Below, in pieces: positions 35,862 through 60,256 of a stretch of DNA of 64,000 nt (position 1 is the first letter of the stretch; each line of letters opens with the position of its first letter). Origin of the DNA: Deltaproteobacteria bacterium (GTDB lineage: Bacteria; Myxococcota; B64-G9); the NCBI GenBank assembly GCA_016935365.1, contig JAFGRB010000178.1, positions 389 through 64,388 on the forward strand. The letters run 5' to 3'. Below the pieces are notes generated by a model. The model made no database searches. It was not told the origin of the DNA and was given only the letters and a program-made list of their open reading frames with translations. The position numbers were made by a program, and so were the translations under genes.

Positions 35862-37235
35862 ATGAAAAGGTGTTTAATCGTCTGTATCCTGTCCGCTCTC
35901 GCGTGCGCCGCGGGCTGCAGCTCCTCATCGGCGCCCGAGTGCAGCGCAGCCTCGGACTGCACCGGCGACCCCGGCGAGGGCTGCGTCTGGCTATGCGTCG
36001 ATCACGCCTGCGAGAAGAGCTGCGATACGCACGAGTGCGAGGAAGCCGCGGACTGCACCGGCGATCCCGGGCAGGGCTGCGTCTGGCTGTGCGTCGATCA
36101 GCACTGCCAGAGGAGCTGCGGCGAGCCGGAGTGCGAGGTAGCTTCTGACTGCACCGGCGATCCAGGCGAGAGCTGCGTCTGGCTGTGCGTCGATCAGCAC
36201 TGCCAGGCGAGCTGCGGCGAGCCGGAGTGCGAGGTGGCCGAGGACTGCCAGGACGAGCCCTGGCTCGAGGACTGCATCGGTCACTTCGAGTGCATCGACG
36301 GGGAGTGCTTCGCGGTCTGCGACGACGAGTGCAGCGTGCCCGAGGACTGCGCGGGCCTCGAGTTCCCGCTGGACTGCCAGGGGCACTGGATCTGCGATCA
36401 GAACCACTGCAAGCCGGTCTGCGACCAGGGCTGTGAGGGCCCTTCGGACTGCGAGGGCCTGCCGTGGCCGGTGGGCTGCCGCGGGCACTGGGAGTGCAAC
36501 GCGGACCACGTCTGCGTGCCGGTCTGCGATCCGAGCTGCACCCACCCGCGCGACTGCTGGGGCCTGGAGTTCCCGATCGACTGCATCGGCTTCTGGGACT
36601 GCGTGGACGGTTACTGCCAGCCGTACTGCGGCGAGTGCGGCGGAGAGGGCGAGACGATCGCGCCCGGCGATCCGATCTGCTGCCCGGGGCTGGTATCCGG
36701 CATGATCGCCGAGATCGACACCACGGGCGACTGTACGCCGATACCCGGGGGCATGGTGTGCATCGACTGCCCGAGCGGCGCGTGCGGGCCCGGCGAGAAC
36801 TTCTGCAACTGCCCCGACGACTGCCCCTTCGAGCCGAACTGCGTGCCCGAGGGCGAGTGGCAATACGGGGACGGGCCGCTTTGCTGCGCGGGGCTGATCT
36901 CGAGGCCCTGGGGCGAGCCCGAGGACGACTGCACGACCAGCAACACGCTCTCGGTCTGTGTGCGCTGCCCGAACGGGGAGTGCGGCCTCGGCGAGAACGT
37001 CTGCACCTGCCCCGAGGACTGCTCGGCGACCGGCTGCACGCCCGAGGGAGAGTACACCAGCCCGGTCGAGCCGAACTGCTGCCCGGGCCTCGAGGCCATC
37101 GTGATCGCCGAGTACGAGCAGGGCGCCTGCAGCTACATCGACGGCGCGCTGGTCTGCGCCGCCTGCCCGAACGGGGAGTGCGGACTCGGCGAGAACTTCT
37201 GCAACTGCCCCGATGACTGCCCGGGCCACAACTGA
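35862..37235 (+). CDS. Cys-rich repeat lipoprotein (Myxococcus-type cysteine-rich repeats)
   Basis: Lipobox LACAAGC; 3x ~37-aa EC..A.DCTGDPG.GCVWLCVD..C..SCGEP and 3x CPNGECGLGENxCxCPxDC repeats. Confidence 0.7.
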   Translation: MKRCLIVCILSALACAAGCSSSSAPECSAASDCTGDPGEGCVWLCVDHACEKSCDTHECEEAADCTGDPGQGCVWLCVDQHCQRSCGEPECEVASDCTGDPGESCVWLCVDQHCQASCGEPECEVAEDCQDEPWLEDCIGHFECIDGECFAVCDDECSVPEDCAGLEFPLDCQGHWICDQNHCKPVCDQGCEGPSDCEGLPWPVGCRGHWECNADHVCVPVCDPSCTHPRDCWGLEFPIDCIGFWDCVDGYCQPYCGECGGEGETIAPGDPICCPGLVSGMIAEIDTTGDCTPIPGGMVCIDCPSGACGPGENFCNCPDDCPFEPNCVPEGEWQYGDGPLCCAGLISRPWGEPEDDCTTSNTLSVCVRCPNGECGLGENVCTCPEDCSATGCTPEGEYTSPVEPNCCPGLEAIVIAEYEQGACSYIDGALVCAACPNGECGLGENFCNCPDDCPGHN

Positions 37236-37240
37236 CAACA

Positions 37241-37318
37241 AGGGGGGTCAGACCCCGACACTTGACACTTGTCTCACACGAAAACTCACAAGTGTCAAGT
37301 GTCGGGGTCTGACCCCCC
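37241..37318. repeat. Long perfect palindromic element (31-bp arms, 15-nt loop) with GGGGGGTCAGAC termini
   Basis: Occupies the entire gap between the convergent stop codons of the Cys-rich gene and uppP. Confidence 0.7.
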
Positions 37319-38139
37319 TAGCCGAGCACACCGAAGCCGAGCAGGGTGGCGATGGCGCCGCCGAGCAGGAGGCGGTAGGCGATGAAGACGGCCGTGGAGC
37401 GCTTCTGGAGGAAGCGCAGCAAGAAGGCGATGGCCGCATAGCCGCTGGCGGCCGCGGCGGCCGTGCCCAGTGCGACGGCCAGCCAGGGCACGCCGGCCGG
37501 GCTCGAGCGGGCCAGGCTGCTGAGTTCGTACAGGCCGCTGGCCGCCACGGCCGGGACGCTGAGCAGGAAGCTGAAGCGGGCCGCGTCGGCGCGCTTCAGC
37601 CCCACGAAGAGCCCGGCGGTGATCGTGACTCCGGAGCGCGAGGCGCCGGGGATGAGCGCCAGCGCCTGGGCGAGGCCGATGAGCAGCCCGCCGAGCCAGC
37701 CGAGCTGCTGCATGTCGAGGCCCCGCTTGCCCCGCCACTCGGCCAGTCCGAGGAGCAGCGCCAGGCCTCCCAGGGCGGCCGAGACGACCCACAGCGAGCG
37801 CAGGCTGGTCTCGATCGCCTCCTGGAAGACAAGCCCGCAGACCCCGACCGGCACGGTACCGATGGCGATCAGCCAGGCGAGCCGGGCCTCGGTCTCGGCG
37901 AAGGGCTTCCTACGCCACAGGCAGCGGAAAAACGAGGCGGCCATGGCGACCAGGTCCCGGAAGAAGTAGACCACGACCGCCAGCAGGGTGCCGAGCTGCA
38001 CCACGGCCGAGTAGGCCGCGCCGGGGTCTGGCCAGCCCACGAGCGCGGGCACCACGCGCAGGTGGGCCGTGGACGAGATGGGCAGGTACTCGGTCAAGCC
38101 CTGGATGAGCCCCAGGATGATGGCCTGGAAGGGATCCAT
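37318..38139 (-). CDS. uppP: Undecaprenyl-diphosphate phosphatase
   Basis: BacA/UppP motifs (GLIQGLTEYLPISSTAHL, PGASRSG). Confidence 0.9.
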   Translation of the reverse strand: MDPFQAIILGLIQGLTEYLPISSTAHLRVVPALVGWPDPGAAYSAVVQLGTLLAVVVYFFRDLVAMAASFFRCLWRRKPFAETEARLAWLIAIGTVPVGVCGLVFQEAIETSLRSLWVVSAALGGLALLLGLAEWRGKRGLDMQQLGWLGGLLIGLAQALALIPGASRSGVTITAGLFVGLKRADAARFSFLLSVPAVAASGLYELSSLARSSPAGVPWLAVALGTAAAAASGYAAIAFLLRFLQKRSTAVFIAYRLLLGGAIATLLGFGVLG

Positions 38140-48469: not shown

Positions 48470-49002
48470 GGCGCACGCTCCCGCTCGGATTCCGGCTCCT
48501 GCTCGCGGGCCGGCACGCGGATCTGCGCCCGGGGGCGCGTCACGTGCACCTCGTCCCTGTCGAGCAAGTACAGGATGCGCTCGCCCCGGATCCGGTTCTC
48601 GCCCTCGTGCACCCAGGGCTTGCCGGTGCAGACGATCCGCCCGGCTGTCCGGTCGTACTCCGCCCGCTGGCAGTGGCCGCGCCTGGCCTTCTGGACTATT
48701 TGGACGTCGCCGGAGAAGACCATCCGCCGGATCGCCCGGTCCGACCCGCCTCGCCCGTCCTCGGCGCCCTCCTCAGCGGGAGCGTATTGCACCTCGAGTC
48801 GCTGGCAGCGGATGCTGAGGTCGCCCTGGGTGGCCTCCACGCTGCCCTCGAAGACCGCCCGGTTCTTCTTCTGGAAGACCCGCAGGCGATCGGAGCGGAT
48901 CTGGACCGGCGGCTCTTCCGCCCGGGCCGGCTCCTCCGCGGCCATCGCCGCCCCTGCCGCGGCCAGCGACAGGGCCAGCAGCGCGCAGCCGAGCCTCATC
49001 GC
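48466..49002 (-). CDS. lptA: LptA-like periplasmic LPS transport protein (OstA N-terminal domain)
   Basis: Signal peptide and OstA-like beta-jellyroll; stop overlaps the lptB start. Confidence 0.65.
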   Translation of the reverse strand, partial: AMRLGCALLALSLAAAGAAMAAEEPARAEEPPVQIRSDRLRVFQKKNRAVFEGSVEATQGDLSIRCQRLEVQYAPAEEGAEDGRGGSDRAIRRMVFSGDVQIVQKARRGHCQRAEYDRTAGRIVCTGKPWVHEGENRIRGERILYLLDRDEVHVTRPRAQIRVPAREQEPESERERAP

Positions 49003-49268
49003 TGACCTCGCCCGTCCCAAAGCACCGCCTCCAGCTCTCCCGACACCCCGCACGCCTCGAGCTGCCCGCCCTCCTCGTCGAGCCGCAGCGACTCGGCCCG
49101 GAGCTCGAAGCGCCGCTCGGCGCCCCGGTACTGCCTCACCACGACCCCCTCGAGCCGCACGTCCACGCTCCGCCCGTCCGCAGCGGGAGCCGATCCGCCC
49201 CCCCCACCGCAGCCGAGCAGGCAGAGTGCAAGCCAGAAGATGCGCCAGAAAGCGCCCATCGCAAGCAC
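48996..49268 (-). CDS. Short LptC-like lipoprotein
   Basis: Lipobox LLGCGGG; 90 aa, in the conserved position upstream of lptA. Confidence 0.45.
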   Translation of the reverse strand: MLAMGAFWRIFWLALCLLGCGGGGGSAPAADGRSVDVRLEGVVVRQYRGAERRFELRAESLRLDEEGGQLEACGVSGELEAVLWDGRGQR

Positions 49269-49287
49269 CAGTCTACCACCTCGAGAA

Positions 49288-49349
49288 GGGGGTCAGACAC
49301 CTTTATTTAGCACTTGCAAGCCAAGTGCTAAGTAAAGGTGTCTGACCCC
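49288..49349. repeat. Palindromic element (28-bp arms) sharing GGGGTCAGAC termini with the 37241-37318 element
   Basis: Its right arm encodes the last codons and the stop (…GSDTFT*) of lpxL. Confidence 0.65.
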
Positions 49350-50239
49350 TCCTTCGTCTTCCAGCGGCGGTGCATCCAGATCCACTCGTCCGGGTGGGCG
49401 CGCACGAAGCGCTCGATCCTCGCGGTCAGCGCCCGGGTGTCCTCGGCCACGGCCCGTTTGAAATCCTGCTCGTCGCAGAGCGGGAAGGGCTCGATCTCGA
49501 TCACCAGCCCGCCCTCGCGCTGGCGGTGGTTGAAGCCGGTGACGACCGCGGCCCGGCACTTGCGCGCCAGGACGGCCGCGGCGGTGGGGGTGGAGGCCGG
49601 GCGGCCGAAGAAGTCGACGAAGACGCTCGGCACCCGCGTGTCCTGGTCGATGAGCAGGCCCATGACGGCCTTGTCTCGGAGCACTCGGGCCATCCGCTCG
49701 AAGATATCCGGCTCCCCGCGCCAGACGGTGTGCACCCCGCCCGAGAGCCGGAATCGATCGAGCAGGCGGGTGAAGCGCGGGTCGTAGGACTTCTGGCCGA
49801 TGGTGTGGATCGGGTAACCGCAGGCCGCCAGGCCGCGGGCCATCAGCTCCCAGTTGCCGCAGTGGCCGGTGACGAAGACCACGCCGCGGCCCTGCCCGAG
49901 CGCGGTATCGAGCACCTGGCGCGACGCGTCCGTCAGCGCGACGTAGCGGGCGAGCTCCGGGATCTTGCCCCGGGCCGCGCAGACCACCTCGGCCACGCCC
50001 TGGCCGAGGTTCTCGAAGACCCGGCGCGCCAGGTCTCGCCGGGCCTGCTCGTCGAGCGCGGGCAGGGCCAGGGCGATGTGCTCGTCGCAGCGCCGGCGCT
50101 CCGTGCGGGCGAAGCGGTATGCGATCCGGCCCAGGCGCCGCCCCCAGCGCAGCGCCCGAGGCAGGCGCAGCCAGCCCAGCAGGCCCAGCCCCAAGCGCAC
50201 GCCGGCGTAGATCAGGAAGTTCTTGATCCGCTTGCCCAT
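49328..50239 (-). CDS. Lipid A biosynthesis lauroyl/myristoyl acyltransferase (LpxL/HtrB family)
   Basis: HCGNWE acyltransferase motif and N-terminal membrane anchor. Confidence 0.8.
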   Translation of the reverse strand: MGKRIKNFLIYAGVRLGLGLLGWLRLPRALRWGRRLGRIAYRFARTERRRCDEHIALALPALDEQARRDLARRVFENLGQGVAEVVCAARGKIPELARYVALTDASRQVLDTALGQGRGVVFVTGHCGNWELMARGLAACGYPIHTIGQKSYDPRFTRLLDRFRLSGGVHTVWRGEPDIFERMARVLRDKAVMGLLIDQDTRVPSVFVDFFGRPASTPTAAAVLARKCRAAVVTGFNHRQREGGLVIEIEPFPLCDEQDFKRAVAEDTRALTARIERFVRAHPDEWIWMHRRWKTKEGSDTFT

Positions 50240-50245
50240 CGACGA

Positions 50246-51862
50246 TCAGCCGCCCCGCGCTCTCGCCCGCGCCATGGCGGCGGCCACGAAGGAAGCGAAG
50301 AGCGGGTGGGGTGCGAGCGGTTTGGACTTGAACTCGGGGTGGAACTGGCAGCCGACGAACCAGGGGTGGCCGGGAAGCTCGCACATCTCCACGAGCTGCC
50401 CGTCGGGAGACAGGCCGGAGAAGACGAGGCCGCCTTTCTCGAGCTGCTCGCGGTAGGCGTTGTTGACCTCGAAGCGATGGCGGTGGCGCTCCGAGATCCG
50501 CTCGACCCCGTACGCCGCCCGGGCCCGGGTGCCGGGCTCGAGCAGGCACGGATAGGCGCCCAGCCGCATCGTGCCACCCTTGTCCTCGACTCCCTGCTGG
50601 CTCGCCATCAGCGCGATGACCGGGTGGGCGGTCTCGGGCGCGAACTCGGCCGAGTTGGCTCCCTCGAGCCCGACGACGTTCCGGGCGTACTCGGCGACCA
50701 TCATCTGCATGCCCAGGCAGATGCCGAAGACCGGCACGCCCTGCTCCCGCGCCCAGCGGACGGCCCGGATCTTGCCCTCGCTGCCGCGGTCGCCGAAGCC
50801 GCCCGGCACGAGCACGCCGTCGACGTCGTCGAGATCCTCCAGCTCGCCCCGCTCGAGCTTCTCCGCGCTGACGTACCTGAGATCCACACAGCCGTCGTTG
50901 GCCAGCCCGCCGTGGAGCAGGGCCTCGTGCAAGCTCTTGTACGAGTCGATCAAGTGGACGTACTTGCCCACGACGCCGATGCACGCCGAGTGCCCCGGCT
51001 GGCGCAAGGTCCGGACCACCTTGCTCCAGCGATCCAGGGAGGTGGCCCGGGACCAGATGTTCAGGCTGTCGCAGACCTTGTCGTCCAGCCCCTGCTGGTT
51101 GAGCTGCAAGGGCACGGCGTAGATCGTGTCCACGTCCGGGCAATCGAACACCGTGTCCCGGTCGGTGGAGCAGAAGAGCGCGATCTTGTCCTTGAGATCC
51201 TTGTCCACCGGGCGATCGCAGCGACAGACGATCAGGTCCGGCTGGATGCCGATCTCGCGCAGCGCCTTGACGCTGTGCTGGGTGGGCTTGGTCTTCATCT
51301 CGCCGACCGCCTGGATGAAGGGCACCAGCGTGAGATGGATGTACAGCGTGTGCTCGCGGCCGATGTCGGTGCGAAGCTGGCGAATGCTCTCCAGAAAGGG
51401 AAGGCCCTCGATGTCGCCCACGGTCCCGCCCACCTCGACGATGCACAGGTCCACGTCGCGCGAGGCCTTGTGGATGCGCGCCTTGATCTCGTCGGTGATG
51501 TGCGGGATGACCTGGACGGTCTTGCCCAGGTACTCGCCGCGCCGCTCCTTGGAGATGACCGTGTCGTAGACCTGGCCGGTGGTGAAGTTGTTGGCCTTGC
51601 CCACGGTGATCGAGGTGAAGCGTTCGTAGTGGCCGAGGTCCAGATCGGTTTCGGCCCCGTCGTCGGTGACGAAGACCTCGCCGTGCTGGTACGGGCTCAT
51701 CGTGCCCGGATCGACGTTGAGATAGGGGTCCATCTTGACCAGGGTGATCTTGAGACCGCGGTTCTCCATCAGGGCGCCGATGGATGCGGCCAGCACGCCC
51801 TTGCCGAGGCCGGAGACGACGCCGCCGGTCACGAAGATGTACTTGGTCTGCTTGGATGCCAC
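50246..51862 (-). CDS. pyrG: CTP synthase
   Basis: [17 protein letters not shown]-terminus and C-terminal glutamine amidotransferase domain; GTG start with GGAGG SD. Confidence 0.95.
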
Positions 51863-52089
51863 GGGCAACCTCCGCTCATCGCGTCCAACCCCACCACATC
51901 GATGCGCGTACGCGGTACGGACAGGCCGGCTGGGAAGAAAACGAGTCGTCTCGCGTGCCCACTTCGGCGTGCACCCTTGAGGAAAAACGCAAAGCAGGGT
52001 GTGTGTCAATGCCTTTCTTCGGGCGGCCCGACCGCAGCGATGCCGATTTTCGGTTTTTCTATTGCGGGCAGTCGTAGTATCATCACCCC

Positions 52090-52560
52090 ATGAGAGCATG
52101 GCTGATCTGCATCCTGGCAATCGTATCGATCGGCTGCCGAGAAGAGCCATCGCCTGCCGTGCCACCGGACGGAGGCGACTCCGATCAGGCGATCCGCACG
52201 GCCAAGCTCGTCTTCGTCGAGGGCGAGGTCCGCGTCAAGCGCTCGGGCGAGTCCGAATGGCTCTCGGCCAGCACGGGCATGCAGCTCTCGATCAACGACA
52301 AGGTCCGCACCCAGCGCAGCAGCTTCGCCACCATCGAGTTCGAGCGCGGCGGCGTGCTGCGCATGGAGCCCGAGAGCCTGGTGGCGGTGACCGATCTCTA
52401 CCACGAGCTGCGCAGCCGGATCCGGCGCTCCACCTTCACCATCGAGCAGGGACGGGTGGAGGCGGAGATGGATGCGATCGAGCGGGAGGGCTCCGAGTTC
52501 AAGATCCGCACGCCAACTGCCGAGGCCCGCGTGGTCCGGCGAGAGGTGGTGTTCCAGTGA
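52090..52560 (+). CDS. FecR-domain lipoprotein
   Basis: Lipobox VSIGC; FecR-like beta domain. Confidence 0.55.
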
Positions 52561-59873: not shown

Positions 59874-60256
59874 TCTTGCAACGCCTCTCTCTCTTCTGGC
59901 ATTGACTAGCACGCCAGGAGGCGAATACGCAAGCTTTGTGCCAGCCTGCCGCCGCCCGCGATCGACAAAAAGAGCCACACAATCAAATTGTTCCGCGCAA
60001 GAGAGCACGGCCCTGAAAGCGGCCGGCTTGCATTTCTGTCACAAGCTAGCCCCCCGCGCGCAGCCCGGCTGCCAAAATGTCAGGAGCGCTCCGCGCCGCC
60101 GGCGCAGCGCATCGCCTCGCATCGCGGATCGGCCCGTCTGGCAAGGAGGCGACGAGTGCCGCAGCGGAGCAACCTTCCGGTTGTGAGCATCGGCATGATG
60201 GAGCCGACGCGGTCCAGACGGGCCGAGGCGCGATGCGCCCGAGACGCCAGAAGCGT

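Follow-up and report, generated by a model that had tools for sequence, protein, structure and literature searches.

RAYT-like genes of species without GTAG REPs are flanked by inverted repeats that bear the motif GGGGWSAS, and these arrangements have been named TIRtrons or TIRYTs (Di Nocera et al. 2013, PMC3733652). The TIR families described in that study are a few and moderately abundant (PMC3733652). Most TIRYTs correspond to subclass 2.1 of TnpA-REP, present in 14.9% of strains, and no REP-like repeats were found near the genes of this subclass (Quentin et al. 2018, PMC6006769). As for REPs proper, some lie inside ORFs, about 10% sit at the end of a coding region, and their termini often give the flanking ORF its stop codon (Di Nocera et al. 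2013, PMC3733652).

The 64-kb stretch of DNA analysed here as a whole (the window) carries two palindromes that can be set beside these systems: W49 (61 nt, 49289-49349), at the 3' end of an lpxL/htrB-family gene, and W37 (Table 1). Like the TIRs of TIRtrons, these repeats carry the GGGGWSAS motif, come as inverted pairs and as dimers or clusters, and are without target-site duplication (PMC3733652; PMC6006769). The lack of a duplication is in keeping with single-strand transposition of the HUH/Y1 type. TIRs of TIRYTs flank a Y1 gene, however, whereas no Y1 transposase gene was found in the window (by regular expression and tblastn) or in the loci of the subfamily with an inner CACTTG; and whereas the published TIR families are few and of moderate size, gene-less hairpins with such termini occur here in many phyla. 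With REPs and REPINs the repeats share the build, two inverted short palindromic units forming a longer hairpin (Bertels and Rainey 2011, PMC3116915), as well as the non-autonomous state and the preference for positions downstream of genes and in convergent gaps; the donation of a stop to the flanking ORF, occasional among REPs (PMC3733652), is what we see at lpxL. In contrast to REPs, the flanks of W49 and W37 have no GTAG or CGTC tag, and unlike in RAYT REPINs, the Y1 protein tied to these termini matches the NCBIfam RAYT model below its cut-off. A further likeness is to Rickettsia palindromic elements (RPEs) and intragenic REPs, which are tolerated in frame in the same way, at variable loops or termini of proteins, and to which one copy described below (in contig L088) is a parallel; W49 differs in being terminal, not internal. 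RPEs are also longer, about 100-150 bp, and a sequence relation to the W49 family is not expected.

Table 1. Positions in the window of the features discussed in the text (columns: feature, position, strand, description).
lpxL/htrB-family lipid A acyltransferase CDS	49328..50239	-	303 aa, complete PF03279, HX4E motif
Element-encoded lpxL end	49328..49349	-	third base of the E297 codon, codons GSDTFT, TAG (49328-49330)
W49 left arm	49289..49316	.	GGGGTCAGACACCTTTATTTAGCACTTG; inverted-repeat search and terminus search
W49 loop	49317..49321	.	5 nt, CAAGC
W49 right arm	49322..49349	.	pairs with the left arm at 27/28 positions
W37, second family copy	37241..37319	.	32-nt arms, 100% complementary, 15-nt loop
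Candidate displaced native lpxL end	49273..49288	-	DFSRW-TAG (TAG = 49275-49273) would be read after removal of W49
Shine-Dalgarno-like GAGGTGG	49276..49282	-	directly past the hairpin on its 3' side, with 7 nt to the GTG at 49268
Small conserved ORF in the LptC position	48996..49268	-	90 aa, lipoprotein-like N-terminus; followed by lptA, lptB, rpoN

That a palindrome overlaps the lpxL end is confirmed. The inverted-repeat search gives W49 two arms of 28 nt that are 96% complementary, with one mismatch; base 49288 is a fifth G, unpaired in the palindrome, base 49350 is T, and the flanks read AGAAG / TCCTT (cgagaag / tccttcg). The 17-nt terminus GGGGTCAGACACCTTTA has two sites in the window, which are the two ends of W49, against 0.04 expected by chance. 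An independent Logan assembly of a public read set (contig L001) is identical through the right arm up to the loop. The GC content of W49 is 0.49 compared to 0.69 for the window, and its folding energy is -50.2 kcal/mol for the 61 nt alone and -71.3 kcal/mol for a 131-nt minus-strand RNA that contains it (49250-49380; z = -6.97 vs dinucleotide shuffles). Searches for a known identity gave little: at W49 Rfam returned just sub-threshold miRNA-hairpin noise, no Rfam family reached its gathering score anywhere in the window, and no tRNAs were found there; a full-text literature search with the motif strings brought nothing bacterial. An unrelated inverted repeat, with 24-nt arms that are 92% complementary and 72 nt apart, lies at 60118-60237.

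The gene that W49 overlaps can be assigned to the LpxL/HtrB late acyltransferases by its full-length domain, its motif and its neighbourhood. The match to PF03279 (Lip_A_acyltrans) covers profile positions 12-295 of 295 (E = 3e-42) and ends at residue 295; the HX4E motif reads GHCGNWE; and the surrounding genes are those of lipid A and LPS (pyrG, lptA, lptB, rpoN), to which relatives add kdsA/kdsB. GC at the three codon positions is 0.70/0.50/0.95. The neighbouring pyrG ORF (50246-52165) is 639 aa long as listed; since its CTP_synth_N domain begins at residue 108, translation probably starts some 100 codons downstream of the listed start. On the minus strand, lpxL ends ...TGG AAG ACG AAG GAG GGG TCA GAC ACC TTT ACT TAG, and the right arm takes over with the last base of the Glu297 codon, giving the C-terminus WKTKE-GSDTFT-stop. 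An earlier note on this DNA had claimed that the palindrome provides the C-terminus and stop codon of lpxL, and this holds, GSDTFT and the TAG both lying in the right arm; its count of seven final codons within the arm has to be corrected to six full codons, plus the TAG and the third base of E297. It is beyond reasonable doubt that the GSDTFT tail represents element sequence, because the same frame of related copies reads GSDxxT-stop and unrelated genes end with GSDTGT-stop. The remodelling concerns at most 8 residues past a complete catalytic domain, and its effect on the enzyme is probably neutral, since the acyltransferase domain and HX4E are intact and orthologue tails are hypervariable.

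This variability was apparent when the best 119 non-self proteins (identity 41-62%) were taken from the 1764 LpxL homologues with E <= 1e-20 that a search of 5.8 billion proteins had returned. These 119 share WVWMHRRWKT(R/Q)P and then diverge fully, with tails of 0 to about 30 residues, many stopping at ...KTRP. None of them ends in GSDTFT, and one alone, P0013, has the first three residues. The comparison that the earlier note proposed thus came out in its favour: past WKT, orthologues carry different tails. At the DNA level, the palindrome is absent from the lpxL 3' end in all five orthologous loci examined (L122, L123, L124, L125 and L181), and none of these palindrome-free loci has the tail. 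As far as the contigs reach, L122-L124 have the gene order kdsB-pyrG-kdsA-lpxL-small ORF-lptA-lptB-rpoN-hpf-ptsN-hprK-rapZ, and the short contig L125 shows the same order over the part of the region it covers. The spacers 3' of lpxL in L122, L123, L124 and L125 measure 110, 111, 108 and 35 nt and contain no inverted repeat. A promoter-like sigma-70 sequence, TTTACA...TAAGAT/TAGTAT, is conserved in the spacer between lpxL and the small ORF of L122 (6907-7016), L123 (6907-7017) and L124 (6804-6911), which suggests that the lpt-rpoN genes of these relatives have a promoter of their own there; the window has no such promoter-carrying spacer and is also without kdsA between pyrG and lpxL.

These data support the proposal of the earlier note that the native 3' end was probably replaced on insertion. 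Of its broader statement, that a repeat has remodelled the end of a lipid A gene, the element-written tail stands; the replacement itself is reached indirectly, and the native end may have been displaced rather than lost. No empty-site allele was found, the best non-self LpxL homologue among the 5.8 billion proteins being 62% identical, and we therefore infer the insertion rather than observe it. Exact deletion of 49289-49349 would give a 301-aa protein, ...WKTK-DFSRW-TAG, with its stop five codons on; among six deletions tried, the exact removal of 61 nt was alone in giving an early stop. The restored TAG falls just after GAGGTGG, 4 nt before the GTG of the downstream ORF. It is this in-frame stop that suggests a displaced native end, but a stop could well turn up by chance in one of the three frames, and it counts for little by itself. 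Moreover, the window protein (WKTKE) lacks the Pro that is conserved after WKT(R/Q), and this difference lies upstream of the palindrome core, so that it is uncertain where the boundary of the element truly lies or what the earlier history of the site was.

The built-in stop of W49 recurs in the family. G-S-D-x-x-T-stop is what frame 1 spells in each of the five copies examined: GSDTFT-stop in W49, GSDPDT-stop in W37, GSDVDT-stop in L088 and GSDTGT-stop in both L128 and L134, the stop being supplied by the conserved inner CACTTGA or by ACTTAG. Translation entering this frame thus stops once six residues of the element have been added. In frame 0 the stop is the TGA within the far-end GTCTGACCCC, and frame 2 is often open. 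Two unrelated genes end with this tail: a glutathione synthetase (gshB-like) fragment as ...ERIRGR-GSDTGT-stop (L128) and a metallophosphoesterase as ...NWTHWW-GSDTGT-stop (L134). A PduO-type adenosyltransferase ends in a different frame, as ...LTDR-GQT-stop (L135). When 131 copies in GC-rich loci were considered, the stop of a GC3-credible gene lay within -15 to +25 nt of the gene-entry side for 27% of the copies, compared to 5.6% of random sites; the stop was inside the element in eight of the 131, and six filled a convergent gap. The palindrome often runs on into A-rich and T-rich flanks. An internal case is provided by L088 (CAZXHG010000153.1, 3092-3149), where a conserved membrane-protein gene (PF10131) contains a family copy that is read in frame 2 and encodes 19 residues, QTLTLDTSRSVKCQRLTP, in place of a loop of about 8-11 residues in eleven homologues (52-61% identity) that align on both sides. 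That the family enters coding sequence is thus demonstrated. The 'Rickettsiales' label of the contig looks mis-assigned, as its GC content is 70%.

The second copy of the window, W37, shares its termini with W49 and has CACTTG in its inner part. A Cys-rich ORF (stop 37233-37235) lies on one side and uppP/BacA (37318-38139, minus strand) on the other, and W37 takes up exactly the gap between them; the uppP TAG (37318-37320) overlaps the outer AGGGGGG of W37, and the flanks are caacaagg / cctagcc. The Cys-rich ORF (35862-37235, 457 aa) has a signal-peptide-like start, no Pfam match and many repeated modules of the types ...CTGDPGxGCVWLCVDxxC... and ...CPNGECGLGENxCxCPxDC.... The two window copies are divergent and, because their inner arms differ, are not recent siblings. 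Each of their arms starts with its own 13-nt near-palindrome, GGGGTCAGAC(A/C)CC, and the arms pair over 28-32 nt. Beyond the window, a metagenome scan for GGGGTCAGAC-N-CACTTG-N-CAAGTG gave 38 loci, with over a dozen complete family palindromes; arms of the CACTTG subfamily read GGGGTCAGACACC...CACTTG. Multi-copy subfamilies exist inside single metagenome samples (SDBV01, Ga0193752). Among the subfamilies, GGGGTCAGACACCGGCACTTGACACTT-loop-AAGTGTCAAGTGCCGGTGTCTGACCCC was found on seven contigs of one metagenome project, and a second project has five contigs with GGGGTCAGACACCTTCACTTGCA.... Family hairpins have energies of -50 to -73 kcal/mol.

When about 185,000 species-representative genomes were scanned for the more generic pattern GGGGTCAGAC-N(20-50)-GTCTGACCCC, at least 120 loci matched, and by their record titles the matches listed come from roughly ten phyla: Pseudomonadota, Actinomycetota, Acidobacteriota, Planctomycetota, Gemmatimonadota, Verrucomicrobiota, Bacillota, Bacteroidota, Omnitrophota and Elusimicrobiota. 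The 13-mer GGGGTC(A/T)GACCCC, which the search pattern did not demand in full, is present at both ends of 66 of the 129 generic copies, while composition would predict 0.12%. A comparison with control palindromes in virus contigs (5 elements vs 1 and 0) is weakly supportive, the numbers being too small to decide. Two contigs, L141 (218-340) and L162 (1864-2000), carry versions of the palindrome of about 120 nt, after which comes another conserved repeat, some 130 nt long; considered as a possible autonomous parent, these composite repeats were discarded, as they have no coding capacity and no transposase. Dense clusters of GGGGTC(A/T)GACCCC occupy convergent gaps in Halomonas and Marinobacter contigs (L053, 2071-2284 and 4228-4367; L049; L091), with up to 14 in 8 kb.

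The connection to TIRYTs comes from the termini. Both ends of W49 and of W37, read from the outside in, are GGGGTCAG and fit GGGG[AT][CG]A[CG], i.e. GGGGWSAS (PMC3733652, PMC6006769), and Y1_Tnp genes bracketed by termini of the type GGGG(T/A)CAGA...TCTG(A/T)CCCC were found at six independent loci (L070; L169; L171/L173; L174/L177; L178, with one end; L179/L180). In L070, a contig fetched for its repeat, the encoded Y1_Tnp protein matches PF01797 with E = 3e-13 and scores 58.7 bits with the NCBIfam RAYT model, under the 80-bit cut-off; its gene is bracketed by GGGGTCAGACCACCTTTT and GTGGTCTGACCCC, and the W49 arm GGGGTCAGAC-ACCTTTAT resembles the inverted repeat GGGGTCAGACCACCTTTT. The brackets are GGGGTCAGACCAC.../...GTGGTCTGACCCC in L169, GGGGTCAGAGCCC.../...GGGCTCTGACCCC in L174 and L177, and GGGGACAGACCCC.../...GGGGTCTGTCCCC in L171, L173, L179 and L180; the second Y1 genes of L169 and L179 have variants of AGGGACAGACCC, GTGGTCTGTCCCC stands at the one end of L178 that is visible, and in L091 (Marinobacter) a Y1 gene adjoins an element. 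In the Burkholderiales-like contigs L169, L171 and L179, the Y1 gene occupies the same slot (Vut_1, CMD, [p450], Y1, DAHP synthase); the proteins of this slot are 64-87% identical, and two of the contigs have another Y1 gene just beyond the DAHP synthase gene. The Y1/TIRYT gene looks vertically inherited, as has been described for RAYTs. Since neither the window nor the CACTTG-subfamily loci hold a Y1 gene, the one tie between this subfamily and TIRYTs is the shared termini of 10-13 nt, and the mobilising enzyme of this genome is, for the same reason, something that we infer. Taken with these limits, W49 is probably a gene-less, REPIN-like copy of a family with TIRYT-type termini (GGGGTCAGAC...GTCTGACCCC), lodged in the lpxL end without target-site duplication. 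We may go further and speculate that the GGGGTC(A/T)GAC(C/A)CC hairpins at large are the missing, abundant REPIN-equivalents of TIRYT/subclass 2.1 genes, distributed over about ten phyla and carrying stops in two of three frames on either strand, which would allow insertion at the last codons of a gene, or in frame in a loop, at small cost; this is a tentative idea, which we would sooner doubt than assert.

Other origins of the palindrome have to be considered. A hairpin at a gene 3' end could be a locally evolved terminator or attenuator of lpxL, never mobile and with the stop always within it. Family copies are often placed in convergent gaps, about 27% of the generic copies have at least four T in the 8 nt after the stem, and a conserved TTTTTCCTT tail follows some subfamily copies. 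W49, however, has no U-tract, its 3' flank in the lpxL direction being CUUCUCGA, with only 3 T among the 10 nt that follow the stem; a consensus scan of 48900-49700 found neither an intrinsic terminator nor a sigma-70 promoter. The recurrence of the same arm sequences at unrelated loci on unrelated contigs, one of them inside a CDS, and the palindrome-free state of the five orthologous loci also make a local origin unlikely; a terminator-like role may have been acquired after insertion. Another possibility is that GGGTCAGAC, and the GSD it specifies, is an old feature or a hotspot of the lpxL lineage, the palindrome having arisen by fold-back duplication or repeated insertion. It is P0013 that raises this question: in L181 (Logan SRR19843167, 2826-2850) this protein ends WKTTP-GSDK-stop (CCT GGG TCA GAC AAG TAG), with GSD as many codons past WKT as in the window protein, on a 9-nt match to the W49 terminus, so that GGGTCAGAC might predate the palindrome at the lpxL end. 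But this is one of the 119 best homologues, no inverted counterpart follows it, the conserved gene order breaks off after lpxL, where an AAA_14/DUF4143 gene comes next, and it is the whole W49 arm, not 9 nt alone, that matches the dispersed family. The P0013 end may be a relic, a hotspot or chance (for a 9-nt match we roughly estimate about 0.01), and we regard this alternative, old feature or hotspot, as quite unlikely.

A MITE derived from a DDE transposon, for example a Tn3-family TIME, would likewise consist of two inverted arms and a short loop, and the first 10 nt of W49 resemble the Tn3-family inverted repeat, which we take to begin GGGGTCTGAC. Such an origin is very unlikely: no target-site duplications were detected, direct flank repeats being at chance level (0/148 at k >= 6), the arms are 28-32 nt and not 38 nt long, plasmid and phage collections contain no sequence similar to W49, and the genes found bracketed by the termini are Y1_Tnp, not DDE. 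Palindromes are also known to break de Bruijn assemblies, and L001 does end in the loop, so one might suspect a fold-back or chimeric join in this metagenome-assembled genome. We give this very little credence, as the order lpxL-small ORF-lptA-lptB-rpoN across W49 is that of four relatives, the arm mismatch is one that an artefactual fold-back would not leave, L001 agrees through the right arm, and similar elements occur in many unrelated assemblies. Finally, the CIRCE operator of HrcA has the consensus TTAGCACTC-N9-GAGTGCTAA, and positions 49306-49330, in the inner part of W49, read TTAGCACTT-N7-AAGTGCTAA, agreeing at 8/9 positions per half-site. Here the spacing is N7 and not N9, the N9 consensus is unmatched within 3 mismatches anywhere in the window, no chaperone gene lies downstream, and TTAGCAC is absent from other family copies; such an operator can be given practically no probability.

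If W49 is, as we think probable, a lodged gene-less copy, its history could have been as follows. A hairpin of this kind would have inserted, without target-site duplication, into a compact lpxL-lptC junction, at the last codons of lpxL and right before the ribosome-binding site from which the next gene is translated. This next gene is the small ORF, which shows 35-43% identity to its positional counterparts in L122-L125. After insertion, translation would have entered W49 in frame 1 and ended at the built-in TAG, yielding ...WKTKE-GSDTFT-stop, and the transcript would carry a 28-bp hairpin between lpxL and the lptC-like, lptA, lptB and rpoN genes. By analogy, such a hairpin could stabilise the 3' end of lpxL mRNA, attenuate read-through, slow termination or alter coupling. 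Liang, Rudd and Deutscher are said to have found in 2015 that, in E. coli, REP hairpins located within 15 nt of a stop lower translation of the upstream gene. There the repeat is downstream of the stop, whereas in W49 the stop is inside the stem. Regulatory effects of a stop-containing stem that abuts the next ribosome-binding site are plausible by analogy with REPs.

The lpxL case is of a known kind, in which a palindromic repeat reaches into the end of a gene and lends it a stop codon, and it provides a clean, checkable example in which such a repeat writes the last residues and the stop of a housekeeping gene. What it adds is the stereotyped GSDxxT-stop tail found on unrelated proteins, together with hairpins that occur across phyla and are tied to TIRYT-type Y1 termini. 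When proteins that are otherwise unrelated share such a tail, both their annotation and the alignment of orthologues can be misled. If the hairpins (GGGGTCAGACCCC) are indeed the REPIN-equivalents of TIRYTs, they would systematically write such tails, GSDxxT-stop and GQT-stop, onto unrelated proteins. For the organism itself, a very stable hairpin now stands between lpxL and the lpt/rpoN genes, where relatives have an ordinary promoter-like spacer, and it may therefore alter the coupling between lipid A acylation and the expression of LPS export and sigma-54 genes.
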